A stretch of 64,000 nt of DNA from Vicinamibacterales bacterium (GTDB taxonomy: Bacteria > Acidobacteriota > Vicinamibacteria > Vicinamibacterales > UBA2999): positions 875-64,874 of the forward strand of contig DATJFF010000080.1 in NCBI GenBank assembly GCA_035495795.1, written 5' to 3'. The notes beneath the pieces were generated by a model that saw only the letters and a program-made list of their open reading frames with translations, was not told the origin of the DNA and searched no databases. The translations under genes and the position numbers were made by a program. Below are positions 28,267-60,530 of the stretch, one piece after another. Numbering within the stretch: position 1 is the stretch's first letter; each line of letters starts with the position of its first letter.

Positions 28267-31200
28267 TCACCGCCAGTCGCCGGCCGCGACGAAGGCCGCC
28301 CAGAAGAACGGATGCGTGCTCAAGCCGCGGGCGCGGCGATCCCGGAGCACGCTCAGGCTGGCCTGGTGTACCGCGTCGGCGGTGGAGAGGTGGCGCTGGA
28401 AGCGGCCCTCGTACAACGCGCGCATCCAGGCGCGGGTCGACTGATCCTCGACCGACCACAGGCTCATGATCACGGTCCGCGCGCCGGCGACCTGGAACGC
28501 GCGGCGGAGCCCGAAGACCCCCTCGCCGGCTTTGATTTCGCCGACGCCGGTGTCGCAGGCGGAGAGGACCGCCCACTGTACACCTCGAAGATCGAGCGAC
28601 GAGACCTCTTCGGCAGTGAGAATTCCGTCGTCCTGATCAGGAGATGCCTGCGCGCGTAAATTGGCGCCAGCAAGCGCCAGGCCCGAGAGCCGCAGCGGAT
28701 TCTGCACCGGCACAGATGACGACAGTCCTCCGACGCCCCTTCGTCCCGAAGGCGCAGGTGTCGTCGCCGAGCACATGTCCTCAACGAAGAAACCATGAGT
28801 GGCAAGGTGCAAGACGAGATGGTTGCCGGCTGAGCCCTTGACGGCGCGCTCGGTGGCGTCGACTCCGGTGAGCAGTAGGGCCGACTTGCTCTCGAGGCCA
28901 GCATTGGCCCAGATGCGAGCGAGGTCTCGGACTTCGTCGAGCGTGGCTGCCAGTGGCTCGAAGCGGTGTTGCCGCAATCCATCACATGAAGATGGCGCTG
29001 TGCGCAACGCGGAGGGCCGTGGGGTTTCACGAGACGCCGGTAATGGCGCTGCGGAGGCAGTTCCCAATCGATCGAAGGCCGGACCGCCGACCGCAAGCAG
29101 ACCTTCGGGTGCACGGTACGGCTGGACAGGCGCCAACACAACGTCGCGCTCAGCGGTCAGGTAATGAATCGGAGGTCCTTGCTCGAGCAGGTAGACGCCG
29201 GAACCGGCGGGGAGCGCCGCGAACGGAACCAGTCCGAGAACTCCGTCCGCGACCACCAGAACCGTCGACGCCCCCGACAGGTGAGCACTCACCGGGTCCC
29301 AGACAAGGGATCTCAATGCGAGACCGGAATTTTGAGACGAGAGGGAAGGTTGTCCAGAGTTGGGCGACGCGGAGAGTGCCTCGGCGGCGACATCGGAGCG
29401 CCACCGGGCCACACGAGCCTCGACCTCTGCTGCATTTCCAATCCTGACCGCGATCGGCGTCCCTGACGAACGAAGGACGAACGCCATGTAGGAAGGCGTT
29501 TCCATCTCGTCGCTCTTCTCGTCGCCCTGTTCGTGATGAGGTGTCGCACGCAGGCGCAGCTGCTGATAGCGAACGAAGGAGACGAGGACGACTCCAGCTG
29601 GTAGCGCTTTCGCCACATCGCCGAGCCCTGTCTGAGCACGGTCGCGCTCTACCCGAAACTCCGCATTGGCCTCGGCCAACCGGCGCTCAGTGCGCTCGCG
29701 ATCCTCTCGTGCGGCGGTCAGCAATTGTTCATAGCGCTGACGCGGCATGGCGCCGGCCCCCTGCACGATCAGGCCAGCAATGCGTTGCTGGGCCTTCGCC
29801 AGGTCGGAGGCCAGAGTCACCATCGCCGGGCCCGCCGCCGGCGATAATCGAAGCCGCGTCGAGATTTCGTCCAGCACAAGGGCGCGTCCGCGAATCACGG
29901 CATCGAAGCTGTCGGTGATCTCGGCCCGGTTTGCGCCAGCCAACGAGAGCATGACGTCGAGTCCGCGGGGTCGAACCGAGGCATAGGCGAGCGCCTGGCG
30001 TTCCGGGAGCGCCCGAAGCATCAGCCGCAGGTGTTCTCGGCCGACTGCTTCCGTCTTGCGAGCCGCGGTGATGGCTTCGGACCGTCGCGCCGATCGAGCT
30101 AGGGTGCGAGCCAAAGATAGTTGGATTTGTGCGGTTTCCGGATGAGTCGTTCCCAGAACACGCTCATCGATCGCCAGCGCCAGGTGATAGTCGCGCGTTG
30201 ATGCCGACAGATCGCCGCGCCCGGCTTCGAGCTCGGCGGCGAGAGCGAGTGTCGCGGCGTGCCGTTGGTCGTCCGGACTTCCAGCCGCAGTCCAGATTCG
30301 TCGGGCCTGACCGGACAGCTCAGCCGCCTCGATGCTTTTCCCGAGCTGCAGGTAACACTGTGCTAATTCCGTCAGCGTTTCGGCTATGGCCCCGCCTTCA
30401 GTGGTCGAGCTCTGCTGGTATGTGGACAAAACGCGCTCGAGTAGCGGAACGGCGTCGCTCGGCGACCCCTGGTGGCGGATGACAATCGCCTGGGCGAGCA
30501 GCGCCTGTGCAACAAAGGGATGGCTCGGGCCGCGGAGGGATTCCCAGACGCGCGCGGCGCGGTCGTACTCGCCGCGAGAGGATTCGTAGTCCCCAAGGCT
30601 GGCATCGACAAGAGCCAGGTTGTAGGCGGCGGTCGCGACCGCATCGTGGTTCGGGCCAAATTGCCCTTCGCGAATGGTCAGATAGCGATCGTAGAGGCGA
30701 CGTGCCTCGGTGTAGTCGCCGAGCAGGAATGTGGCATTGGCGAGGTCGTTGAGGTGCTCGGCGATGGCTGGATGGGAAGCTCCCAAGGCCCGCTGTGCGA
30801 GATCCAGGGATCGAGCGCCGAGATCGTGTGCGGTCTGTATGTCCCAAAGCTCGAGGTGAGCCGCGGCCAGCCGACGAAGACACTCAGCAATCGCCGGATG
30901 CTCTGTCCTCAGGGAGCGTTCGGCCAAAGCCAACGCACGATCGGCATTGTCTTTCGCCTCGACAAACCGACCGTTGGCCCAGTCGTTGTCCGAGAGGAGA
31001 GAGAGCGTGCCGATGTAGTCGGGATGTTCTTCGTCGCGGCCGCGACGAAGTTGCAATACTCGATCAACTACAGGTCCTGCGTCACCGACTCGACCCCGAC
31101 GCAACAACGCGAGTGCAAGCACTTCGTGGCTGCGAGCCTGCTCTCGCCGTTCCGCCGCGCCTTCTTTGACTGCCACCGCTCGGTTTGCGGTCTCAACCGC

Positions 31201-31722
31201 TTCGTCGTATCGGCTCGCCTCGCGCAAGGCAGTGCTGAGGCGATCGAGGGCACGGCCCCGCAGGACCCGATCTATTCCACTCGATTGGTCCTGGAGTTCT
31301 GTGACCCGGGTAAAGACTTCGATCGCGCGTAGCGGCTGGCCTTGCGCCCGAAGCACCTCACCAAGGGTTTGCAGAGAGGAAATCGAGTCCGGGTGCCGCT
31401 CACCGAGACGGCTCGTCCTCGCGTTCAGCGACCGCTCCGCGATCACCAGGGTTTCCGGTGACGCGCCCATACCATTGGCGATCAGTGCCTGAACCAGAAC
31501 GTCGCTTGCCTTGGCGAGGTCCAATGCTCCGCCGGATTGGCTCTGCAAGGAATCGACCAGCGACCGCGCCGCGCCGGTCGCCGCGTTGAACTGTCCCTGA
31601 TCGAGAAGCGCGGCCACGTCGTCCAAACCGCGACGCAGTTCGGGCGCACGACTGCCGCTCGGCGTCCCGCAGGCGGCCACCGCACATGTGAGCCAGAGGA
31701 CAACAGCGAAACGCTTCCGCAC
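28267..31722 (-). CDS. lipoprotein with long TPR region and C-terminal CHAT (caspase-like) protease domain
   Basis: GTG start; lipobox WLTCAVAACG; about 600 aa of TPR-like repeats (LGEVLRAQGQPLRAIEVF, LSLLSDNDWANGRFVEAKDNADRALAL and others); C-terminal LVLHLATHGFF ... WAVLSACDTGVGE ... HPFFWAAFVAAGDWR. Confidence 0.85.
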   Translation of the reverse strand: MRKRFAVVLWLTCAVAACGTPSGSRAPELRRGLDDVAALLDQGQFNAATGAARSLVDSLQSQSGGALDLAKASDVLVQALIANGMGASPETLVIAERSLNARTSRLGERHPDSISSLQTLGEVLRAQGQPLRAIEVFTRVTELQDQSSGIDRVLRGRALDRLSTALREASRYDEAVETANRAVAVKEGAAERREQARSHEVLALALLRRGRVGDAGPVVDRVLQLRRGRDEEHPDYIGTLSLLSDNDWANGRFVEAKDNADRALALAERSLRTEHPAIAECLRRLAAAHLELWDIQTAHDLGARSLDLAQRALGASHPAIAEHLNDLANATFLLGDYTEARRLYDRYLTIREGQFGPNHDAVATAAYNLALVDASLGDYESSRGEYDRAARVWESLRGPSHPFVAQALLAQAIVIRHQGSPSDAVPLLERVLSTYQQSSTTEGGAIAETLTELAQCYLQLGKSIEAAELSGQARRIWTAAGSPDDQRHAATLALAAELEAGRGDLSASTRDYHLALAIDERVLGTTHPETAQIQLSLARTLARSARRSEAITAARKTEAVGREHLRLMLRALPERQALAYASVRPRGLDVMLSLAGANRAEITDSFDAVIRGRALVLDEISTRLRLSPAAGPAMVTLASDLAKAQQRIAGLIVQGAGAMPRQRYEQLLTAAREDRERTERRLAEANAEFRVERDRAQTGLGDVAKALPAGVVLVSFVRYQQLRLRATPHHEQGDEKSDEMETPSYMAFVLRSSGTPIAVRIGNAAEVEARVARWRSDVAAEALSASPNSGQPSLSSQNSGLALRSLVWDPVSAHLSGASTVLVVADGVLGLVPFAALPAGSGVYLLEQGPPIHYLTAERDVVLAPVQPYRAPEGLLAVGGPAFDRLGTASAAPLPASRETPRPSALRTAPSSCDGLRQHRFEPLAATLDEVRDLARIWANAGLESKSALLLTGVDATERAVKGSAGNHLVLHLATHGFFVEDMCSATTPAPSGRRGVGGLSSSVPVQNPLRLSGLALAGANLRAQASPDQDDGILTAEEVSSLDLRGVQWAVLSACDTGVGEIKAGEGVFGLRRAFQVAGARTVIMSLWSVEDQSTRAWMRALYEGRFQRHLSTADAVHQASLSVLRDRRARGLSTHPFFWAAFVAAGDWR

Positions 31723-31776
31723 GTCATTCGGCCGGCGTTCTCACGCTGGCCACCTTGTGAGGCCGAACCTAACCGG

Positions 31777-32139
31777 CTATCTGCGAGGCGGCTTCCCTCC
31801 AGAGGGTGAGTTCGACTCCGCCGGAACTTGCGTTCCCGCGTCCCCGCTCGCGGCCCGTGGTTCTTCCTTGTTTGTCTGCTGTTTCTTCGAGCGCTCCTGC
31901 TGCTGTCGTTGGTCAACGAGGCGCCGGAGTTCTGCCATTGCCAGCCGCTGGCCCTGGCATGCTCCGGACCGCGCCGATCCATCTCCGCACAGTGGAGCGA
32001 CGACAGCCACGACAAGCATGCCGCACAGATTGGAGGCGCTCTGCAGGATGCCGCTGGCGACATCGGCGCAGTGTCCCTGCTGAGCGGCAGGAGGTGCCGC
32101 ACCCGCGAAACCCTTCTCCCCAGACTTCGGTCCCGGCAT
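31777..32139 (-). CDS. hypothetical 120-aa Cys-rich protein
   Basis: ATG preceded by AAAGGGAG 8 nt upstream; sits 39 nt after the C11 gene and 54 nt before the CHAT gene on the same strand; four Cys (HCADV..NLCGMLVVAVVAPLCGDGSARSGAC), then a charged tail ELRRLVDQRQQQERSKKQQ; no family recognised. Confidence 0.4.
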   Translation of the reverse strand: MPGPKSGEKGFAGAAPPAAQQGHCADVASGILQSASNLCGMLVVAVVAPLCGDGSARSGACQGQRLAMAELRRLVDQRQQQERSKKQQTNKEEPRAASGDAGTQVPAESNSPSGGKPPRR

Positions 32140-32178
32140 TGTCCGCTCCCTTTCAATCCGTTGGATGTTTCGTTGGAC

Positions 32179-33354
32179 TCAATTCGTCAACGCAAGCGCT
32201 CGCACCAGCTGAGGCCAAACCGTTCGATCGGCAAACGAGAATTTCCCGTAGAAGGATGCCGCCGCAACGACATCGTGATCGTCGGCGACATTGGGAGCGT
32301 ACAGGCTGACGCCGTGCAGACCGGCGCACTCACAGGAGTTGCGGCCGTTTTCAACGATGAAGGGTTGGTAGAGGCCCTGGGCGCTCGCCTTTGGCCCTTC
32401 ACCCGTTGGGCTCAGCAAGCTGTCTCCGAGCGCCAGGGCGGCAGCTCTGACTTCGTCCGAGCAACTATCCCTGACAAGTTGAGCGCAAAGATCGAGCACG
32501 TCCACAAACGGCTGACCTGGCGCGGTCTGGGCAGACCGGAACAGCTGATTGATCGTTGAGATTTCATCCGCGTTGTCGTCCATGCTGACGATCAGTTCGC
32601 GGGCGAGTCGGTCAGTCAATTGCACGAGATCGTCGGCATGACTCAACTCGAGATGGGTCAGCGTGACCGGGCGTTCCAGCGCTCGATAGTGTTCGCAGTA
32701 CCGGCGAACCGCGTAAGCGCCCAACTCCGCCGGTCCCATGATGCGATCGCCTTCAGGCTTTGCCAGGCGGCCGAGAATCGCTGTGTACGGCCAGCCGGGC
32801 AAGGGCACGCCAATCTGCGATGCGAGCAGGAATCTGGCGAAGGGCTCGAGTTGACAGGCGACCTCGATGGTGGCCAGCGCGCACGCATCGAAGGCCACGA
32901 TATCCAGCTTGTGACTCTTCGACTTGGGCTTTCGCTCCTTCGAGCCCTTGAGGACGTTGGCCAGTTCGGCGAAGTCCAGCGCATCGATGCCGAATCGAGT
33001 CTCGACCGGCGCGAACGCGAAATCGTAGGCGTGACCCCACAACACCAGCATGGTGTAGTGATCGGGCTCACCGCGGTAGGTGCTCGTCGCGGCGTGGATG
33101 AACGACTCCAGCGCCGCACCGCTGGCGAACGATTCGGGAGCGAACGCGGGCTGCTCCTCTGGCACCAGGTTGTTCTTTTCCACCCGGAATCGATCGGCAA
33201 CGCCTGCACCGTGACGTTCGACCCATATCTCCAGATCGCTGCTGGAAGGTATCTGCTTCAGTTCGGCGATGTCGGCGTCGGCCTCCCGCTCGAGCGAGAG
33301 ATTGCCCTCGACGCCTTCGGCGCCCATGAAGATCATCACAGTCCACTTCGCCAC
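32179..33354 (-). CDS. clostripain-like (peptidase C11 family) cysteine protease, no signal peptide
   Basis: GTG start with GGAGGG upstream; N-terminus AKWTVMIFMGAEG, candidate catalytic His in MLVLWGHAYDF and Cys in LDIVAFDACALATIE, as in C11 peptidases. Confidence 0.7.
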   Translation of the reverse strand: MAKWTVMIFMGAEGVEGNLSLEREADADIAELKQIPSSSDLEIWVERHGAGVADRFRVEKNNLVPEEQPAFAPESFASGAALESFIHAATSTYRGEPDHYTMLVLWGHAYDFAFAPVETRFGIDALDFAELANVLKGSKERKPKSKSHKLDIVAFDACALATIEVACQLEPFARFLLASQIGVPLPGWPYTAILGRLAKPEGDRIMGPAELGAYAVRRYCEHYRALERPVTLTHLELSHADDLVQLTDRLARELIVSMDDNADEISTINQLFRSAQTAPGQPFVDVLDLCAQLVRDSCSDEVRAAALALGDSLLSPTGEGPKASAQGLYQPFIVENGRNSCECAGLHGVSLYAPNVADDHDVVAAASFYGKFSFADRTVWPQLVRALALTN

Positions 33355-33552
33355 GGTTCCCTCCAGTCGACTGAAGCCGAACGCGAATCACCACGGCGGG
33401 CGACCGCCGGCGCGGGGTCTGGAGTCTAGCTCAGGCCTTCCACCAACGAAAGGCGAACCCCAAGCGTAAAGAACGTCTGGGGCAGATGGATCGAACAGAC
33501 CGTGCCGGTTCGATTACCACCGGTCCGACGTTTGTGACTGAGTAGGCGTATT

Positions 33553-34227
33553 ATGAGCACCGCTACCCTCTCCTTCGGCCGACTGCCCTATATGGACGAC
33601 GCCAGCTCGGCTGGCCATCGTGTCGTTCGACCCTCGCCCGACCCGCCGTCGGCGGCAGAGGCCACGTACGATCTGGTCCAGAGGGTCCGCGCCGGTGACG
33701 CCACCGCGGCCGACATCCTCTTCGGCCGCTATGAGACCCGCCTCCGCCGCTGGGCCCACGGCCGGCTCCCCGCCCAGGCCCGCGGCGCCCACGACACCCA
33801 GGACCTCGTCCAGGAAACGCTCGTTCGCGTGTTCAACCGGCTCCCGAAGTTCGAGCCCCGCCACCCCGGCGCCTTCCGCGACTACGTCTGGACCACCATG
33901 TGGAACGCCGTCCGCGACCTGGCGCGCAAATACAAACGGCGCGGACCGGCCGATCCCCTCGACGCGCATGAGCTGGCTGCCGCCGATCCCTCGCCCCTCG
34001 AGGAGGCCATCGGCGCCGAGGCCCTGGACCGCTACGACACCGCCATGGAGCGACTTCGCCCCGAGGATCGCGAGGCCATCATCATGCGGATCGAGCTGGG
34101 CCTGTCACACGCTGAGATCATGGAGGCCCTGGGCAAGCCGAGCGTCGCCGCCGCCCACATGGCCGTCAGCCGCGCGCTCGTCCGGCTGGCACAGGAGATG
34201 GCCCATGCCCACGTCCAGCCGCGCTGA
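33553..34227 (+). CDS. ECF sigma-70 family RNA polymerase sigma factor
   Basis: Region 2: DTQDLVQETLVRVFNRLPKFEP...FRDYVWTTMWNAVRDLARK; region 4: LRPEDREAIIMRIELGLSHAEIMEALGKPSVAAAHMAVSRALVRL. Confidence 0.8.
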   Translation: MSTATLSFGRLPYMDDASSAGHRVVRPSPDPPSAAEATYDLVQRVRAGDATAADILFGRYETRLRRWAHGRLPAQARGAHDTQDLVQETLVRVFNRLPKFEPRHPGAFRDYVWTTMWNAVRDLARKYKRRGPADPLDAHELAAADPSPLEEAIGAEALDRYDTAMERLRPEDREAIIMRIELGLSHAEIMEALGKPSVAAAHMAVSRALVRLAQEMAHAHVQPR

Positions 34228-35935
34228 CGAGAACGGCGTGCTCTCCGTCGCCAACGCCATCGCGCTCGGAGAGGGCGTGGACTGGGATGCTGCCAATCGC
34301 ACCACCGCCGAACCGGACCTCGTCAGCCAGCTGCGCGTCATCGACACCGTCGCGCAGCTCGGCGATCGCATCCCCGACACCTGGGGCCGCCTGACCATCG
34401 CCGGCGAGCTCGGTCGCGGATCGCACGGCACCGTCTATCGAGCCCACGACCCGCATCTCGGCATCGACATCGCGCTCAAGGTCGTCAAGCCCGGCGGTCA
34501 CGGCGGCAGCGCGATCGTCGCCCGCGCCTTGAACGAAGCGCGAATGCTGGCGCAGATCAACCATCAGAACGTGGTCCGCGTCTTCTGGGCCGAGCCGCTC
34601 GGCGACGAGGTCGGCGTGGCCATGGAGATCGTCGACGGCCGCACCCTGCGCGACATCGTTCGCCAGCGCTTCCCGCTGCCGGTGAACGAGGTGGTTTCAA
34701 TTGGCTTGGACGTGTGCCGGGCGCTTACCGCAGTGCACGGCCAGCGCATGCTTCACGGCGACATCAAGGCCGGCAACGTCATGCGGACCGCCGAGGGACG
34801 CACGGTGCTGATGGACTTCGGCGTCGGCCAGGATCTCAAGGTCGAGGACCCGCCGTCGCTGAGAACCGCCGGCACCCCGTTATACCTGGCGCCCGAGCTC
34901 TTCGAAGGACACCCGCGCACGCCGCAGGCCGACATCTACAGCACTGGCGTCCTCCTCTATCACCTCGCCACCGACGCGTACCCGGTGGACGCGCACGACG
35001 CCATCGGGGTCGAACGGCACCACGCTGAGCGCCGGCCGATGCGGCCGATCCGAGAGCTGAGGCCCGATCTCCCCAGGACATTCGTCGCCGCGGTCGAACG
35101 TGCAATCGCGCGCCGTCCCGCCGATCGCCACCAGTCGGCCGTCGAGTTCGCGGACGCGCTGGAGAAGGTCATCAGGCCACAGCAATCCTGGCAGACGCAT
35201 GTCAAAGAGCTGCTTCCCGCGGTTGCCGCGGTGCTGGTGGCGGTGGCTGCTTTTCTCGCCTGGCCACGCGGCGGCGCCAATACCGCGGCCAGCAACGCCC
35301 CGAGCACAGCGACGGGTTCAGCGGCCGTGGCACCTGCGTCGCCAGCGCCCCCGACGGCCGCGGACGGTTACCGCATCGATGCCGCGTTCTATCGGCTCCA
35401 GGGCGAAACCGACGTGCGGCTGGAGCCTGGCGCCCGCGTGTCGGAAGGCGACGCCATCTCGCTGAAGATCCAGAGCTCGGTCCCCGTCTACGCCTATGTC
35501 GTCAACGAAGATGAGCAGGGCGAGTCGTACCTGCTGTTTCCGCTGCCCGATCAGCCTGTGGCCAACCCGCTGCCCGCCGGCAAGACCCACGTAATTCCCG
35601 GCGTCATCGGCCGCGAACAGGTCCGGTGGGTTGTGTCGAGCGCCGGCGGCCGCGAGCACTTCCTCATCTTCGTGATGCCCGACAAACCGGCGCCGATGTT
35701 CGACAAGATGTTCGCCAGCCTGCCGGCACCGAGCTACGGGGCACGCACGCTGGCCCGAAAGCTGTCCGGTGACCAGCTGGTGGCGCTCCGCGGCGTCGGT
35801 GGTCTCACCAAATCGCCGTCGCCGGCCGCCGCCGCCAGGCTCTCGGAGCAGTTCTCCGTGCCGCTGGCCCAGGGCGAGGAAACCGCTCGCGGCGTCTGGA
35901 TTCGCCAGCTCACCGTCGACAATCCACAGAAATAG
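34205..35935 (+). CDS. Ser/Thr protein kinase with TM segment and extracytoplasmic DUF4384-like domain
   Basis: ATG 34205 preceded by AGGAG and overlapping the sigma gene by 23 nt; GRGSHGTVYRA, IALKVV, HGDIKAGNVM, DFGVGQ; TM LLPAVAAVLVAVAAFLAW; GYRIDAAFYRL...GDAISLKIQSSVPVYAYVVNEDEQGESYLLFPLP. Confidence 0.85.
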   Translation: MPTSSRADENGVLSVANAIALGEGVDWDAANRTTAEPDLVSQLRVIDTVAQLGDRIPDTWGRLTIAGELGRGSHGTVYRAHDPHLGIDIALKVVKPGGHGGSAIVARALNEARMLAQINHQNVVRVFWAEPLGDEVGVAMEIVDGRTLRDIVRQRFPLPVNEVVSIGLDVCRALTAVHGQRMLHGDIKAGNVMRTAEGRTVLMDFGVGQDLKVEDPPSLRTAGTPLYLAPELFEGHPRTPQADIYSTGVLLYHLATDAYPVDAHDAIGVERHHAERRPMRPIRELRPDLPRTFVAAVERAIARRPADRHQSAVEFADALEKVIRPQQSWQTHVKELLPAVAAVLVAVAAFLAWPRGGANTAASNAPSTATGSAAVAPASPAPPTAADGYRIDAAFYRLQGETDVRLEPGARVSEGDAISLKIQSSVPVYAYVVNEDEQGESYLLFPLPDQPVANPLPAGKTHVIPGVIGREQVRWVVSSAGGREHFLIFVMPDKPAPMFDKMFASLPAPSYGARTLARKLSGDQLVALRGVGGLTKSPSPAAAARLSEQFSVPLAQGEETARGVWIRQLTVDNPQK

Positions 35936-36014: not shown

Positions 36015-36347
36015 ATGAGCCGGGACCCTGTCGACTACCTGCACGGCACCCTCGAAACCCTGATTCTCAAGACGCTCACCCGCGGGCCCAACCACGGCTA
36101 CGCGATCGCTCGATGGATTGAAGACGCCATCGACGATGCCTTCCCCGTGGAGGAAGGGTCGCTCTACCCCGCCTTGTACCGAATGGAGAAGAAGGCGTGG
36201 GTCGAGGCGGAATGGGGCACCTCGGAGCTGGGGCGAAGGGTGAAGCTCTATCGCCTCACCCGCGAAGGGCGGCGGCAGCTGGCCAGCGACACCGTCGCAT
36301 GGGCGGCGTTCTCGACCGCGATCACGCGGGTCCTGGCTCGGGGGTAG
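36015..36347 (+). CDS. PadR family transcriptional regulator
   Basis: LHGTLETLILKTLTRGPNHGYAIARWIE...EEGSLYPALYRMEKKAWVEAEWG...VKLYRLTREGRRQL. Confidence 0.9.
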   Translation: MSRDPVDYLHGTLETLILKTLTRGPNHGYAIARWIEDAIDDAFPVEEGSLYPALYRMEKKAWVEAEWGTSELGRRVKLYRLTREGRRQLASDTVAWAAFSTAITRVLARG

Positions 36348-36351
36348 CGTC

Positions 36352-39015
36352 ATGAAGAAGCTTCTCAGATCGTGGCTGTGGCACGTGCCCGTGGACCGCG
36401 AGGTCCAGGAGGAGCTCGCCCACCACACCGAGCTCCGGGCCCGCGAGCTCGCGGAACAGGGCATGGAGCCGGCCGCCGCCCGTGCCGAGGCCGAGCGGCG
36501 TCTGGGCGATCGTGCGGCCCTGGCGAAACGCCTCCAGCATCTCGGCGAAGAGCGCGACCGGGCCCGCCGGCGCGCCCAGTGGCTCTCGGATCTCCGGCTC
36601 GATCTCGGCGTGGCGATTCGGCATGCGCGCCGGAATCCGGGTTTCACCGCCGGCGTGGTGTTGACGCTGGCGCTCGGACTCGGCGCGACCACCAGCATCT
36701 TCAGCGTCGTGCACGCAGTGGTCCTGGCGCCTTTCCCCTACGCGGCGCCGGAACGCGTGCTCTCGGTTTACACGACGTGGAAGGGCAGCAACGGTGGCAC
36801 CTCGGCCGGCAACTTCGACTACCTGCGACAGCGCGTGACCACCATCGCGCCACTCTCGGCGGCGGCTTTTTCGAGCTTCAACCTCGCCGGCGACGATCAG
36901 CCGGAGCGGATCCTCGGACTGCGCGCCACTGCAAGCTGGTTCGATGTGTTCGAGATTCCGCCGCTCATCGGCCGGACCTTCACGGCCACCGAGGATCAGC
37001 CGGGGCACGAGCACGTCGCAGTGCTCAGTCACGGACTGTGGAAGCGGCGCTTCGGTGGACGCGCAGACGCGATCGGCGCGACGCTGCGCCTCAACAACGA
37101 GCCGTACACGGTGATCGGCGTGATGCCTCCGGCCTTCGCGTCTATCACCGACGAGGCGAGCGTCATCCTGCCAATCGCGTTCACGCCCGAGCGGCTGGCG
37201 ATGTACGACGAGCACTATCTCGAGATGTACGGGCGCCGGCGTCCGGACGTGAGCCAGGCCCAGGTCAACGACGAACTGGCGCGGGTCGCCGCGGACCTCC
37301 GCCGCGATCATCCGGAGCAGAACGTGGATCGCAGCGCCACCAGCGAACGCCTCGACGAGGCCATCGTCGGCGACTTCCGGCTGCGCCTGGTGGTGCTGCT
37401 CCTGGCGGTGTCGATGGTGCTCGTGATCGCCTGCGGCAACGCCGCGCACCTCCTTCTGGCCAGGCTGGCGGCGCGGTCGCGCGAACTCTCGATCCGAGCC
37501 GCGCTCGGCGCCGGCCGCGGACGGATCGTCCGACAGGTGCTGGCCGAGAGCCTGGTGCTGGCACTGCTCGGCGGCATCGCCGGGGTGGTCGCCGCGTGGT
37601 GGGCCCTGCCCGCTCTGATTGCGGCGGCCCCGGACGGCGTGCCGCGGCTGGCCGATGCGTCGCTGAACGGGCGGGTCCTGTTCGTCGCGGTGCTGCTGGC
37701 AATCGCGAGCGCAGTCATTGTCGGCGTCCTCCCGTCATGGTCGGCGACGAACCGCAACCTGCGCCAGGATCTCGGCGACGGAAAAGGGACGGTCTCGGGC
37801 ACGCTGGTGCCATGGCTCCGCCAGGCGTTGATTGCGGCGCAGGCAGCGATCGTGGTGATCGTCCTCGCCGGGGCGGCCCTCCTGATCCGCAGCGCGATCA
37901 ATCTGCAGGAGGTGCCGCTCGGGTTCGACACGACCGGCGTGTTGCGGGCGCGCGTTGGGCTGCAGGGCGATCGCTTCCGCTCATCCGAGGCGGTCAAGAA
38001 CGCGTTCGCGTCGCTCGAAGCGCGGTTATCGGCATCGCCAGGGGTTTCCGTGTCGGCGCTCGACTCGCAGGCACCGCTGGTCGGCAGCAACGGCTCGAAC
38101 GGATTGATACCGGAGGGTCGTCCGATCGACATGGCGAGCATCATCAACAGCCGAAGCCACTTCGTCACCCCGGGCTACTTCAGGCTCCTGCGTCAGCCGC
38201 TCCGCGCCGGCCGCGAGTTCGCGGCGGCCGACCTGCGCTCCGCGCCGCTGGTGATGATCATCAACGAGACGCTGGCCCGGCAGGCGTTCGGCACCCTCGA
38301 TCCGATCGGCCGCCGGATCTCGTGTTGCGAGGGCAAGCCGGGAGAACCGTCCTGGAAGATCGTCGTCGGCGTAGTCGGCGACGTGCGGTCGCGCGGGCCC
38401 GCTCAGGATCCGCTGCCGGAGTTCTACCTGCCGCTCGCCCAGATCCCCGAGGTCGCATGGTCGTGGATCAACAACACCCTGGACGTTATGGTCCGTGCTG
38501 CCGAGGGTGATCCGATCGCGCTGGCCGGCACGATTCGGAGCGCTGTCGCTGAGCTCGATCCGACGCTGCCGGTCTACGCGATTCGAACCATGGACGAGGG
38601 GCTGCGCCGCAGCACGGCGCAAGCGCGTTTCAACACGGTGCTGATGACGCTGCTGGCCTTGACCGGGCTGATCCTCGCGGCGCTTGGCATCTACAGTCTC
38701 ATCGCCTGGCTCGTCGCCCAGCGAACGCGTGAGATCGGCGTCCGGATGGCACTCGGCGCCGCGCCCTCCCGGGTCGTCCGCCAGGTGGTAGCGCACGGCC
38801 TGCGGCCCTTCGTTGTCGGGCTGCTGAGTGGTGTCGCGGCTGCGATGGCCACCGGCCGGCTGCTGCAAGGTCAGCTATTCATGGTCGGCCCTCGCGACCC
38901 GGCCACTCTCATGGTCGTCGTCGCAGTGTTGCTCGTCGTCGCTGCGCTGGCCGCCCTCGTGCCCGCCCGCCGCGCGACGAGAATCGACCCCGCCCAAGCT
39001 CTGCACGAGGCATGA
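36352..39015 (+). CDS. ADOP-family duplicated FtsX/MacB-like permease (PadR-associated)
   Basis: 887 aa, starts 5 nt after the PadR stop; N-terminal helical extension, then RHARRNPGFTAGVVLTLALGLGATTSIFSVV and two FtsX modules. Confidence 0.9.
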   Translation: MKKLLRSWLWHVPVDREVQEELAHHTELRARELAEQGMEPAAARAEAERRLGDRAALAKRLQHLGEERDRARRRAQWLSDLRLDLGVAIRHARRNPGFTAGVVLTLALGLGATTSIFSVVHAVVLAPFPYAAPERVLSVYTTWKGSNGGTSAGNFDYLRQRVTTIAPLSAAAFSSFNLAGDDQPERILGLRATASWFDVFEIPPLIGRTFTATEDQPGHEHVAVLSHGLWKRRFGGRADAIGATLRLNNEPYTVIGVMPPAFASITDEASVILPIAFTPERLAMYDEHYLEMYGRRRPDVSQAQVNDELARVAADLRRDHPEQNVDRSATSERLDEAIVGDFRLRLVVLLLAVSMVLVIACGNAAHLLLARLAARSRELSIRAALGAGRGRIVRQVLAESLVLALLGGIAGVVAAWWALPALIAAAPDGVPRLADASLNGRVLFVAVLLAIASAVIVGVLPSWSATNRNLRQDLGDGKGTVSGTLVPWLRQALIAAQAAIVVIVLAGAALLIRSAINLQEVPLGFDTTGVLRARVGLQGDRFRSSEAVKNAFASLEARLSASPGVSVSALDSQAPLVGSNGSNGLIPEGRPIDMASIINSRSHFVTPGYFRLLRQPLRAGREFAAADLRSAPLVMIINETLARQAFGTLDPIGRRISCCEGKPGEPSWKIVVGVVGDVRSRGPAQDPLPEFYLPLAQIPEVAWSWINNTLDVMVRAAEGDPIALAGTIRSAVAELDPTLPVYAIRTMDEGLRRSTAQARFNTVLMTLLALTGLILAALGIYSLIAWLVAQRTREIGVRMALGAAPSRVVRQVVAHGLRPFVVGLLSGVAAAMATGRLLQGQLFMVGPRDPATLMVVVAVLLVVAALAALVPARRATRIDPAQALHEA

Positions 39016-58016: not shown

Positions 58017-60530
58017 ATGGGCGATCTGAAGGTCTCGATCCGGCGCCTCTCCAAGACTCCCGGATTCAGCGCCGCCGCCATCGTTGTCCTGGCGCTGGGC
58101 ATCGGACTGAACGCGGCGATGTTCAGCATCGTGTATGCGATGACTCTTGCCGGGCGCGGCTTTCCGGATCCAGACCGCCTCGTCCAGCTCTACGCGCGAG
58201 ACGCGCGCACCGGCGATTACCGGGCGTTCTCCTACCCGGTCTACCAGGAGGTTGCCTCCGGCGCGGAGATGTTCAGCGGCGTTCTCGCGCACGCTCCCAC
58301 TCTCGTTGGAATCGGGACGGGAACGGAGTCCAGGCGCGCGCTCGCGGCCATCGTCAGCGCCAACTACTTCACCGTCCTCGGCGTGCCGCTATTGAAGGGA
58401 CGGACCTTCACCGAGCAGGAAGATCACCCGGGGCAGGATCTGCCGGTCGTCGTCGCGAGCTACGCGTACTGGCAGCGGACCGGCTTCGATCCGGAGCTGG
58501 TTGGCGGCCAGATCCGCGTCAACGAGCGCGCCTTCACGATCATCGGGATCACGCCTCGAGGTTTCAGCGGGACGATGAGCGTGGTCGGGCCGGAGCTGTT
58601 CTTGCCACTGGGCGTCTTCCATTCGCTGGCGACCGAGTTCATGGAAGGTGCCGACCGTTCGCTGCTGCGTGCGAATGCGTACAACCTGTTTCTGGTCGGC
58701 CGCTTGAAGGACGGCATCAGCGAAGCGGCCGCCGGCAAAGGCGTCGAGCTGTTCGGCCAAAGCCTGGCGCGGAGCTTCCCCGCGGAGCACGAGCATCACA
58801 CGCTGTCGCTGACGGCGCTGCCGAAGTTCGGCACCAGCACGTCGCCCTCCGACGAGAGCGTGATCAAGATGCTCGGCGTCGTGATGATGGGGATGACGAC
58901 CGCGGTCCTGCTCACCGTGTGCCTCAATCTGGCGTCGATGCTGCTGGCGCGCGGCCGCGCCCGCCGCAAGGAGTTCGCCGTGCGGCTGGCGATCGGCAGC
59001 AGCCGGGCCCGCATCGTCCGGCAGTTGCTGGTGGAAGGACTGCTGCTCTCGACAGTCGGCGGCGTCTTTGGCATGGGTCTGGGCCTTTACGCCGTGGACG
59101 CACTCGTGGCGTCGCTGTCGGCCATCCTGCCGATCACGATCGTGCTGCAGGGCCTGACCACGCCGGTTCTTGTCGCCGGCGCCGCCGGCTTCTGCCTGCT
59201 CGCCACCCTCGGGTTCGCGCTCGGACCAGCGATGAAGCACTCCGGCGCGGACATCCTGTCGGACCTCAAGGTCCAGGCCGGCGACGATCCCGCGCCCCGC
59301 AAATGGCGGCTGGTGCCACGAAATCCACTCGTCGCGGCGCAGGTGGCCCTTTCGATGTGCCTGCTGATCGCTGCCGGTCTCTTCTTCCGCATGGCGCTCG
59401 GGTCGGCCAGCACGGAGCTCGGGTTCAACGCCAACGACACGGTGCTCGCGGAGGTGGACGCGCAGCTGGGTGGCCTCAGCGAGGCCCAGGCGCTCGCGAT
59501 CTACGAGCGGCTCGAACAACGGCTGGCGAAGCTGCCCGGCGTCGCATCGGCCAGCGTCGGCGCGCTCGTTCCGCTCGGCATGATCAACTTGAGCAAGGAC
59601 GTCCAACGGGCCGGCCTGAACCCTCTGCCCGGTGCGAAGCCGCCGACACCGGAGGAGGGACAGGCGTTCGACGCCCGGACCAATGCGATTGGCCCGGGCT
59701 ATTTCGATGCGATGGGCGTTCCTGTCCTGCGCGGACGCGCATTCACCGCTGGCGAGGCGTTCGGCGGCGGCCCATCGCGAGTCGCCATTCTCGACGAGGC
59801 GCTGGCGCGCAAACTCTGGCCAGACGGGTCGGCGCTGGGGCAGCAGATCCAGTGGGCGGCGCGGAGCGGGCGCGGGCCCAGCCAGCCGATGGAAGTGATC
59901 GGGATCGTCGCCGCGACGCGATCCGGTCTGTTCGAACGCGAGCCCGGAGGCGCGGTGTACTTGCCAATCGGCCAGGAATTCGTGAGCGACGTGCACCTGC
60001 ACGTTCGTCCGCTCCGATCAGACCCGGCGCTGGTCGACCTGGTGCGGCGAGAAGTCCGAGCCGAGGCGCCAGGAGTGCCGCTTTTCGGCGTCCGCACCTT
60101 TGCGACGCACCTCGAAACCGCAGCGGAGTACTGGCTGCTGCGGCTGTCCACGCTGATGTTTGCGTTCTTCGGCGCGATGGCGATGATCGTGGCGCTGGTT
60201 GGCATCTACGGTGTCACGGCCTACGCCGTGGTCCGCCGCACTCGCGAGATCGGCGTGCGGATTGCGGTCGGCGCCCGGCCTGCGGCAGTCCTGCGGCTCA
60301 TCCTCGTGGAGAATCTCGCGACGGCAGTCGCGGGCATCGCGGCGGGATGGCTGCTTGGGATCGGCGTGGGACGTGTCATGGCCAGCGTCTTCGTCGACGT
60401 CCCGGCTTTCGATCCCTGGATCTTCAGCCTCGTTCCCACGTGCTTCGTCCTTGCCGCCCTAGGCGCCACATGGACGCCGGCCCGGCGCGCCAGCGCCGTC
60501 AACCCCATCAGCGCGCTCCGCGCCGAGTAG
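58017..60530 (+). CDS. ADOP-family duplicated FtsX/MacB-like permease
   Basis: 837 aa; MGDLKVSIRRLSKTPGFSAAAIVVLALGIGLNAAMFSIV; two FtsX modules; no adjacent PadR or ATPase. Confidence 0.9.
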   Translation: MGDLKVSIRRLSKTPGFSAAAIVVLALGIGLNAAMFSIVYAMTLAGRGFPDPDRLVQLYARDARTGDYRAFSYPVYQEVASGAEMFSGVLAHAPTLVGIGTGTESRRALAAIVSANYFTVLGVPLLKGRTFTEQEDHPGQDLPVVVASYAYWQRTGFDPELVGGQIRVNERAFTIIGITPRGFSGTMSVVGPELFLPLGVFHSLATEFMEGADRSLLRANAYNLFLVGRLKDGISEAAAGKGVELFGQSLARSFPAEHEHHTLSLTALPKFGTSTSPSDESVIKMLGVVMMGMTTAVLLTVCLNLASMLLARGRARRKEFAVRLAIGSSRARIVRQLLVEGLLLSTVGGVFGMGLGLYAVDALVASLSAILPITIVLQGLTTPVLVAGAAGFCLLATLGFALGPAMKHSGADILSDLKVQAGDDPAPRKWRLVPRNPLVAAQVALSMCLLIAAGLFFRMALGSASTELGFNANDTVLAEVDAQLGGLSEAQALAIYERLEQRLAKLPGVASASVGALVPLGMINLSKDVQRAGLNPLPGAKPPTPEEGQAFDARTNAIGPGYFDAMGVPVLRGRAFTAGEAFGGGPSRVAILDEALARKLWPDGSALGQQIQWAARSGRGPSQPMEVIGIVAATRSGLFEREPGGAVYLPIGQEFVSDVHLHVRPLRSDPALVDLVRREVRAEAPGVPLFGVRTFATHLETAAEYWLLRLSTLMFAFFGAMAMIVALVGIYGVTAYAVVRRTREIGVRIAVGARPAAVLRLILVENLATAVAGIAAGWLLGIGVGRVMASVFVDVPAFDPWIFSLVPTCFVLAALGATWTPARRASAVNPISALRAE

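Follow-up and report, generated by a model that had tools for sequence, protein, structure and literature searches.

The stretch of DNA analysed here, which we call the window, comprises 64,000 nt from a Vicinamibacterales bacterium (UBA2999; GenBank assembly GCA_035495795.1, contig DATJFF010000080.1, positions 875 to 64,874 of the forward strand) and contains five adjoining genes that encode two proteases, a small protein, a sigma factor and a kinase. On the minus strand lie open reading frames (ORFs) for a predicted cytoplasmic cysteine protease of the clostripain family (C11, clan CD; 391 aa; 32179..33354), for a small protein of an unannotated family (120 aa; 31777..32139) and for a predicted exported lipoprotein protease (1151 aa; 28267..31722) that joins tetratricopeptide repeats (TPR) to a CHAT domain. 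On the plus strand, divergent from the C11 gene, lie a sigma factor of the extracytoplasmic function (ECF) type (224 aa; 33553..34227) and a membrane Ser/Thr kinase (576 aa; 34205..35935), whose genes overlap by 23 nt. The original prediction had described three tightly spaced, co-directional minus-strand genes, and this description is borne out at these coordinates: the three genes share one frame, are separated by gaps of 39 and 54 nt, and have no terminator-like sites between them above shuffle expectation. The sigma/kinase pair that it had placed next to them is likewise confirmed by domain profile matches. It had further described the three minus-strand genes as a self-contained operon, and here the comparison of related genomes leads to a different conclusion.

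Our survey began from a scan of one genome per species, which gave 31 genome loci with close C11 relatives (37-61% identity), almost all of them in metagenome-assembled genomes (MAGs) of Acidobacteriota/Vicinamibacterales, and continued with tblastn searches using the window proteins; in a total of 33 loci, almost all in Vicinamibacteria MAGs, the C11 gene, the small ORF and the TPR-CHAT gene stand in an unbroken row. The TPR-CHAT gene follows the C11 gene in 30 of the 31 genome loci, and in the remaining one the contig ends first, so that the two proteases, whose co-occurrence the original prediction had proposed to survey, are neighbours wherever the sequence of a related locus reaches far enough. 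The distance from C11 to TPR-CHAT is 430-770 nt in most loci and approximately 1.1-1.2 kb in two. In 29 of 31 loci the sigma factor and kinase lie within 10 kb of this three-gene cassette, and their placement takes one of three forms: upstream and divergent, the arrangement of the window (17 loci), upstream and co-directional (3, with one more at a distance of 4.6 kb) or downstream of the CHAT gene (8). Protein divergence across the linked loci is 40-60%, and the survival of the linkage through both rearrangement and divergence is strong evidence of a functional unit. When all ORFs of the loci were clustered only these five genes were conserved, with no sixth conserved gene among them, and two independently annotated metagenome contigs carry the same five. 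The sigma factor, kinase, C11 protease, small protein and TPR-CHAT protease are thus inherited together as a conserved five-gene module, and it is this unit of five rather than a self-contained operon of three that the loci define. Many MAG contigs with the MFD prefix (L004-L031) carry a frameshifted C11, kinase or TPR-CHAT gene, seen as tblastn segments split between adjacent frames, which limits the estimates of per-gene identity; these frameshifts could be assembly errors rather than pseudogenes. One complete Vicinamibacteria-type module is found on a contig labelled 'uncultured Bifidobacteriaceae bacterium' (L018; CAYUAX010000047.1), probably through a binning or labelling error. The cassette at L031 (10001-15215) sits beside rpoB/rpoC, and that at L021 (10001-14983) adjoins a different 175-aa ECF sigma factor, followed by a 271-aa ORF and a DUF4097 protein.

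The assignment of the first minus-strand gene to the clostripain family, made originally from signature motifs, is supported by both sequence and predicted fold. The protein matches PF03415 at 93.9 bits (gathering cut-off 25.8; E=1.9e-26), and its AlphaFold2 (AF2) model (pLDDT 76, pTM 0.82) finds clostripain (9cip) as its best Foldseek match (E=5e-14), with all ten of the best PDB matches being C11 enzymes (E 5e-14 to 4e-5) even at 14-23% sequence identity to the solved members. Aligned to these solved enzymes, H108 (LWGHAY; 33031..33033, minus strand) and C158 (FDAC; 32881..32883, minus strand) line up with their LWSHG and FDAC motifs as the catalytic dyad, and D156 (32887..32889, minus strand), two residues before the cysteine, takes the position of the S1 specificity aspartate; all three residues are invariant across 20 homologues. 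The equivalent residues, Asp229 of the Arg-specific clostripain and Asp177 of PmC11, are the P1 determinants of those enzymes (PMC11296011). The window enzyme is therefore predicted to have the acidic S1 pocket of Arg/Lys-specific C11 peptidases. It opens directly with the first beta-strand of the fold and so has no signal peptide, as had been proposed. Fold, His/Cys dyad and the aspartate at the S1 position are what it shares with the characterised C11 enzymes (clostripain, PmC11, thetapain/iotapain, fragipain), from which it differs in its low identity, in lacking a signal peptide and in belonging to a small separate clade: a C11 profile matches 13,072 50%-identity representatives at E<=0.001, and about 33 of the representatives listed score above 280 bits. 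Some characterised C11 peptidases are known as pro-protein activators, and a paper on the BcpT toxin mentions clostripain. Several orthologues (P0005, P0006, P0009, P0014, P0020) end in VCC or ACC, for which lipidation or metal binding are possibilities; the window protein ends in LALTN (at 32182) and does not have the double cysteine. A distant clostripain-related peptidase on plasmid pTT6-1 of Skermanella sp. TT6 (L043; NZ_CP067421.1, 303309-315884) appears to share an operon with YcaO-like and TfuA-like genes. Such a context is typical of ribosomally synthesised and post-translationally modified peptides and hints at a possible use of cytoplasmic C11 relatives in the maturation of peptides.

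The second protease carries clear export features, and its identification in the original prediction as an exported TPR-CHAT protein with a lipobox stands. The first 19 residues form a signal peptide with lipobox (31666..31722, minus strand; N-terminus MRKRFAVVLWLTCAVAAC followed by G), and a signal peptide or lipobox is present in every intact orthologue. These residues lead directly into an array of kinesin-light-chain-type TPRs at approximately aa 50-600 (29923..31575, minus strand; nine TPR_12 and four TPR_10 matches), and the protein contains neither an anti-sigma domain nor a transmembrane (TM) helix. The C-terminal CHAT domain (aa 799-1149; 28276..29328, minus strand; PF12770, 211 bits, E=3e-62) has its histidine at H976 (ATHGFF; 28795..28797, minus strand) and its cysteine at C1056 (LSACDTG; 28555..28557, minus strand), and both are invariant in 13 full-length orthologues, in which the last 100 aa are 85-91% conserved as against 30-50% for the TPR region. 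A sequence search of the PDB returned TPR proteins only, with no solved CHAT protein at E<=0.001, and the closest solved relatives of the TPR part were the peptide-binding TPRs of kinesin light chains. With intact catalytic sites in both enzymes and an export signal on TPR-CHAT alone, the earlier proposal of two clan CD proteases on opposite sides of the membrane is supported as a prediction for the inner membrane. Besides the catalytic cysteine, C913 and C984 of the CHAT domain are invariant in the 13 orthologues and could form a disulfide in the exported protein. At L019 (15375-18776) the TPR-CHAT gene is followed directly by that of another, diverged paralogue, which has a lipobox too but is accompanied by no extra C11 gene or small ORF, and the near-identical locus L009 has no such paralogue.

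Between the two protease genes a small protein with a recognisable core is encoded in approximately 29 of 30 loci, and it is probably the key component of the module. The window ORF is preceded by a ribosome-binding site (GGGAG, 7 nt upstream of the ATG), as had been noted originally, and independent JGI gene calls exist for the protein, with a 122-aa gene called between C11 and TPR-CHAT on metagenome contigs. The other parts of the earlier description, which had called the ORF unassignable and Cys-rich, need revision, since the ORF belongs to a conserved family and cysteine richness is confined to one clade. Neither the window ORF (Pfam, NCBIfam, PADLOC) nor the other members of the family (Pfam) have a family match; an NCBIfam match to GspM was dismissed as weak (19 bits against a cut-off of 60). 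A profile search of a 5.8-billion-protein collection with the core of the small protein gave 7 matches, mostly truncated gene calls, and did not widen the family. Its members share a charged N-terminal leader that often ends in RLAERG and has no signal peptide, then tandem repeats, then a conserved core of roughly VAxDIFRRAxxLGGHLVVAFVAPV, and a variable tail that carries an amphipathic helix. In the window's clade the core reads ILQSAxxLCGxLVVAVVAP, and in the window itself it spans aa 27-50 (VASGILQSASNLCGMLVVAVVAPL; 31990..32061, minus strand). Readings of the core as a double-glycine leader or a twin-arginine signal (FRRAxxLGG/H) were set aside on account of the hydrophobic spacing and the off-consensus residues after the arginine pair.

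The repeats are the most distinctive feature of this family. At least two copies are present in 23 of 27 curated sequences, as 2-8 tandem units of 6-10 aa directly ahead of the core, and the units differ by lineage, with examples in GREPDR, GEDIER, GPKQADK, GDEEIRR, GDYSDPER, GEEPKR, GARTDR, GKLSDK, GEKAER, GIELKR, GYEEYDR, GGPDLLR and GAEPKEDRK. The allele of L006 and L008 has seven to eight copies of REPDRG. Further repeat alleles occur at L039 (four copies of PKLSDKG) and L041 (four copies of GEEPKR), the latter shared with L011, where the four copies are likewise kept while leader and tail have diverged. Across these differences the junctions follow a common pattern, with [RK]-G at the boundary in 17 of 19 distinct units and an acidic residue (Asp or Glu) before the basic one in 12 of 19. 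Units within one gene are identical in protein and differ at synonymous sites: the codon variants counted over all genes comprise 99 that are synonymous and 23 that change the amino acid, which gives a crude ratio of 0.07. In L006, for example, six different 18-nt strings encode the DRGREP copies. The count carries an ascertainment caveat, since protein sequence was used to define the repeats. Despite this caveat the copies are not recent products of slippage, and selection keeps the peptide sequence of each one. The window protein itself has the core, the tail helix and four cysteines, but in place of clean repeats it shows only scattered K-G and K-S sites; in L003 the sister allele carries three copies of EPKEDRKGA. 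AF2 predicts helices at residues 18-47 (low confidence) and 60-90 (pLDDT 71-92) in the window protein.

The plus-strand genes supply a membrane-spanning signalling pair. The sigma factor matches Sigma70_r2, Sigma70_ECF and r4_2, and its region 2.2 reads H-D-T-Q-D where canonical ECF factors have DAED. Among the orthologues this motif takes the form (D/E/Q)-(T/S)-x-D, in which two acidic residues remain and the Thr/Ser is conserved wherever region 2.2 of an aligned orthologue is intact. No anti-sigma domain was found among the neighbours or the module genes. In the kinase, a protein kinase domain (aa 66 to approximately 330; Pkinase, E=3e-36) precedes the single TM helix of the protein (aa 336-354; 35210..35266, plus strand) and an extracytoplasmic DUF4384 domain (aa 413-490; 35441..35674, plus strand; E=2e-10). 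The kinase is of the non-RD type (HGD instead of HRD), with DFG intact and a Gly-rich loop present. A -10-like hexamer TAGACT (33423..33428, minus strand) with a TTTAC-like -35 element and a spacer of 17-18 nt would form a sigma-70-type promoter into the C11 operon; the hexamer is found in the same orientation 83-212 nt upstream of the conserved KW start of C11 in 18 of 32 loci and is kept also where the kinase gene lies directly upstream. In the intergenic region (33355..33552 in the window), a CGTTGAT(C) element recurs 60-100 nt upstream of the sigma start codon in approximately 14 loci (e.g. L001, L007, L022, L025, L039) and looks like a sigma-70 -35 box; a conserved 'TATGAT' upstream of sigma was rejected as a promoter because it is start-codon context. 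Beyond the kinase lie a PadR regulator and an 887-aa duplicated MacB_PCD/FtsX permease (36015..39015), with a second such permease 20 kb away (58017..60530). These PadR/permease (ADOP) genes are common only to close relatives, which places them outside the module.

Comparison of close relatives revealed that the module does not evolve as a whole. Between the window and L003, the flanks on both sides are 90-95% identical, and from 28809 to 33541 identity is patchy and falls to 64-75%; this part runs from the intergenic region between sigma and C11 through C11 and the small ORF into TPR-CHAT, where it stops just before the catalytic histidine. At the protein level the sigma factors are 95% and the kinases approximately 87% identical, against 54% for C11 and 52% for TPR-CHAT. 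The same pattern of conserved flanks around a variable cassette is seen in L001/L030, in L024/L030 (flanks 95% and 88-97%, with the variable block stopping at the end of the TPR array) and in L011/L041 (flanks 93-96%, cassette 77%). For the window and L003, synonymous divergence (dS) reaches 1.8-2.3 in the cassette but only 0.22-0.26 in sigma and kinase, and for L011 and L041 the corresponding values are 0.76-0.85 and 0.14-0.17, which together with the conserved flanks indicates that the cassette alleles are much older than the genomes that carry them. The ratio of nonsynonymous to synonymous divergence (dN/dS) in the cassette is 0.18-0.35, and 0.18-0.26 for the window and L003, a sign of purifying selection. 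Exchange of the alleles takes place by recombination in conserved arms formed by the sigma gene and the highly conserved C-terminus of CHAT. A metagenome scan with the sigma factor for further alleles beside near-identical sigma genes returned short contigs only. The ancient, exchanged cassette also explains the atypical composition that the original prediction had noted as a GC-poor patch, a description that is clear at third codon positions (GC3 0.68-0.74 for the three cassette genes against 0.83-0.89 for neighbours) but only modest in total GC (0.61-0.65 against approximately 0.67 elsewhere and about 67% for the window overall).

Four components of the module come from known families (C11, CHAT, ECF sigma factors, Hanks-type kinases), but the combination of a cytoplasmic C11 protease with a tandem-peptide protein has no described counterpart; full-text literature searches gave no C11-CHAT-ECF module and no account of this repeat protein, in agreement with the earlier statement that no characterised system has this architecture. 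In its workings the module most resembles three systems without belonging to any of them. DdvA of M. xanthus is a periplasmic TPR-CHAT protein that controls the ECF sigma factor DdvS and has been proposed as the sensor/protease that starts the signal; the likeness lies in an extracytoplasmic TPR-CHAT with a His/Cys dyad that is genetically coupled to an ECF sigma factor. DdvA, however, has a cytoplasmic zinc anti-sigma domain and a TM helix, whereas the window TPR-CHAT is a separate lipoprotein with neither, its sigma factor has a Ser/Thr kinase as partner where DdvS has an anti-sigma factor, a C11 protease and a repeat protein are added, and no CBASS or CRISPR genes lie nearby. Craspase, the complex of Cas7-11 with the TPR-CHAT protein Csx29 in type III-E CRISPR systems, cleaves Csx30, which binds the ECF sigma factor RpoE, and among the types of domain at the C-terminus of Csx30 is DUF4384 (PMC10028731; bioRxiv 10.1101/2022.08.17.504292). 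The window module shares with it the link of TPR-CHAT to an ECF sigma factor and the DUF4384 domain, which here forms the kinase ectodomain. Craspase differs in being cytoplasmic and activated by RNA through Cas7-11, while the window CHAT is exported and its DUF4384 is fused to a kinase and not to a Csx30 N-terminal domain; Cas7-11 (gRAMP), a CRISPR array and Csx30/Csx31 were not found among the window neighbours, and no Cas gene is conserved across the loci. In EcfP-PknT and EcfK-PknS (PMC8999054), a Ser/Thr kinase activates an ECF43-type sigma factor by phosphorylating its region 2.2, and there too the sigma gene is translationally coupled to that of a membrane Ser/Thr kinase, without an anti-sigma factor and with a degenerate DAED that contains Thr/Ser. 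EcfP has STTA at this position and the window sigma keeps two acidic residues, so that DAED is only partly lost and the two are likened by gene pairing and, in part, by motif, not by ECF group; nor is a protease/repeat-protein cassette described for those pairs.

These parallels suggest how the five proteins might work together. We put forward, as a serious possibility that we nevertheless hold somewhat short of even, a proteolytic signalling module in which C11 cuts the repeats, the resulting peptides set the specificity of TPR-CHAT, and the signal passes via the kinase to the sigma factor. The small protein would be the precursor, cut by C11 at junctions of the form [DE][RK]/G to free several copies of a lineage-specific peptide of 6-10 residues, with the conserved core beside the repeats as a possible docking element; C11 is the candidate precursor protease because it shares a compartment with the small protein, both being without signal peptides, and because of its acidic S1 pocket. 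The peptide, or the processed small protein, would then serve as specificity ligand of the exported TPR array, a role suggested by the peptide-binding kinesin light chain TPRs that are its closest solved relatives. Activated CHAT would in turn act on the DUF4384 ectodomain of the kinase, as may be supposed from the occurrence of this domain in Csx30, the substrate of the Craspase TPR-CHAT. Finally, the kinase would phosphorylate the conserved Thr in region 2.2 and switch the sigma factor on, since D-T-x-D in place of DAED parallels EcfP/PknT. Replacement of protease, precursor and TPR together while the signalling genes stay constant suggests allele-specific recognition, by analogy with agr, and the role of the module is likely that of an allele-specific signal, similar to a pherotype or to kin recognition, rather than bulk proteolysis. 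A more specific version would be a novel kind of pherotype or kin-recognition system for a diderm soil phylum, in which C11 would excise and possibly ligate or cyclise the peptides, as some clan CD enzymes do, the periplasmic TPR-CHAT would read them, proteolysis of the kinase ectodomain would relay the signal to a phospho-activated ECF sigma factor, and the triad would represent ancient recombining specificity alleles; in this complete form we consider the idea doubtful.

Peptide signalling of this kind has precedents elsewhere. RRNPPA systems of the Rap-Phr type in Bacillota use tandemly duplicated pheromone propeptides (PMC11343458). The likeness lies in several short hydrophilic peptides per precursor, release by a protease, an adjoining TPR receptor and diversified specificity. 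The sequences are unrelated, however, and the compartments are the other way round: an RRNPPA propeptide carries a Sec signal, undergoes cleavage outside the cell and meets a cytoplasmic TPR receptor, whereas the window precursor and C11 are predicted to be cytoplasmic and the TPR array is exported and fused to a protease. In the staphylococcal agr locus, the hypervariable block spans the processing protease, the precursor and the sensor part of the receptor and lies between conserved signalling genes, and in yeast alpha-factor/Kex2 and in the cyanobactins (PatE/PatA/PatG) several identical core peptides per precursor are excised at defined junctions by dedicated proteases. These are analogies only, as the module has no homology to AgrB/D/C, Kex2 or PatA/G and encodes no thiolactone or heterocyclase chemistry.

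Several observations weigh against the proposed signalling route. The unit peptides are highly charged and clustering of the ORFs across the loci revealed no conserved exporter, which leaves their passage to the periplasm unaccounted for, and peptide charge shows no complementarity to TPR charge (n=11, rho +0.46, p=0.15). The alleles of the window, L001 and L002 lack clean repeats, so the repeats may not be essential. Cassette copies without the kinase/sigma pair exist at two loci, L031 and L021, as second copies in their genomes, and a search upstream of C11 and sigma across the loci recognised no ECF-type promoter (-35/-10 pair), only sigma-70-like elements. CHAT-type enzymes could also cut after Arg, as separase does, in which case the repeats might have been matched to the wrong protease. 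Polymorphism of ancient alleles is, moreover, typical of conflict loci as well.

Other explanations deserve consideration alongside the signalling proposal, beginning with the simplest, that the five genes are merely adjacent and have independent roles. Each gene type is common on its own, and C11 and sigma seem to have separate sigma-70-like promoters, but the contiguity of the triad in 30 of 31 loci, the linkage of the pair in 29 of 31 through three gene orders and protein divergence of 37-55%, the lack of any other conserved gene nearby and the replacement of the triad as a block between close relatives make this explanation extremely improbable. A second alternative resembles regulated intramembrane proteolysis: the small protein would be anchored in the membrane by its core with the N-terminus inside, CHAT would trim the periplasmic tail helix, and C11 would then degrade or release the repeats, the small protein regulating the kinase/sigma pair with no free peptide ligand. 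That the genes of two proteases on opposite membrane sides flank one small gene would suit this arrangement, AF2 predicts the core as a helix followed by a confident second helix, and DdvA offers a precedent for CHAT-initiated intramembrane proteolysis of an ECF regulator. Core hydrophobicity is borderline and can be read either way. In the window's clade it is similar to that of a signal-peptide h-region, with KD19 at 1.76-1.93 and a Hessa sum of +3 to +4.2 (the CHAT signal peptide has +3.7), but in most alleles the core is too polar for a TM helix, with a median KD19 of 1.51 and a Hessa sum of +6.3 where the kinase TM helix has +1.8. No consistent topology emerges from the charges around the core, the selection that keeps repeat units identical would be left unexplained, and the sigma factor remains 95% identical where the small protein has been exchanged, which speaks against direct binding between the two; we regard this alternative as unlikely.

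Inhibition rather than signalling is the basis of a third explanation, in which the disordered small protein would act as a securin-like pseudosubstrate, either inhibitor or chaperone, blocking, as securin does in the TPR-CHAT-like separase, a protease active site through its repeated Arg/Lys sites until its destruction releases the activity, with no functional peptide. The small protein is largely disordered and always encoded between the two proteases, many units fit the separase-site pattern E/D-x-x-R (EPDR, EPKR, EAER, ELKR), and DdvA, Craspase and separase share the TPR-CHAT architecture. For inhibition, however, a single site would suffice where 2-8 identical ones are kept under purifying selection, the diversity of units among lineages would not be needed, and because the small protein has no export signal and CHAT is exported, C11 would be the only possible target, all of which makes this mechanism quite unlikely. 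We judge in much the same way a role in conflict or defence, in which the exported TPR-CHAT would sense a protein of an invader or competitor in the periplasm, a role that has been proposed for DdvA, kinase and sigma would turn on the response, C11 and the small protein would form the effector arm through a toxic fragment or decoy, and the diversity would reflect an arms race. Ancient-allele polymorphism with recombination at conserved flanks, the atypical codon composition of the cassette, a hydrophobic core behind a charged, cleavable N-terminus and the action of TPR-CHAT/ECF pairs in M. xanthus phage defence and in type III-E CRISPR are all compatible with such a role. On the other hand, C11, CHAT, the small ORF and sigma have no PADLOC match and the kinase matches only a generic kinase-domain entry, the neighbours (PadR, permease, aminotransferase and others) are metabolic and transport genes and not a defence island, the dN/dS values indicate purifying and not positive selection, and a toxin or decoy would give little reason for selection to keep the units identical. 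Relatives were not found on viral contigs, and plasmids gave only distant C11s (approximately 24-29% identity). The defence or death module envisaged in the original prediction therefore finds no positive evidence in the PADLOC results, the ordinary neighbourhood or the viral contigs, and a signalling or recognition role fits the data better than defence.

In summary, the module, found in a phylum that ranks among the most abundant soil bacteria and of whose signalling and mutual recognition almost nothing is known, joins four subjects so far studied apart, namely caspase-fold proteases, multi-copy peptide precursors, Ser/Thr-kinase-activated ECF sigma factors and allelic specificity cassettes, and its eight-fold excess of synonymous divergence in the cassette and its selected identical tandem peptides need explaining even if the signalling model is wrong. 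Should the model be correct, the module would represent a new route from ribosomal peptide to gene expression in a Gram-negative-type cell, would supply a concrete substrate and ligand for the widespread, poorly understood bacterial TPR-CHAT and cytoplasmic C11 proteins, and would offer in its natural alleles ready-made orthogonal sets of protease, peptide and receptor.

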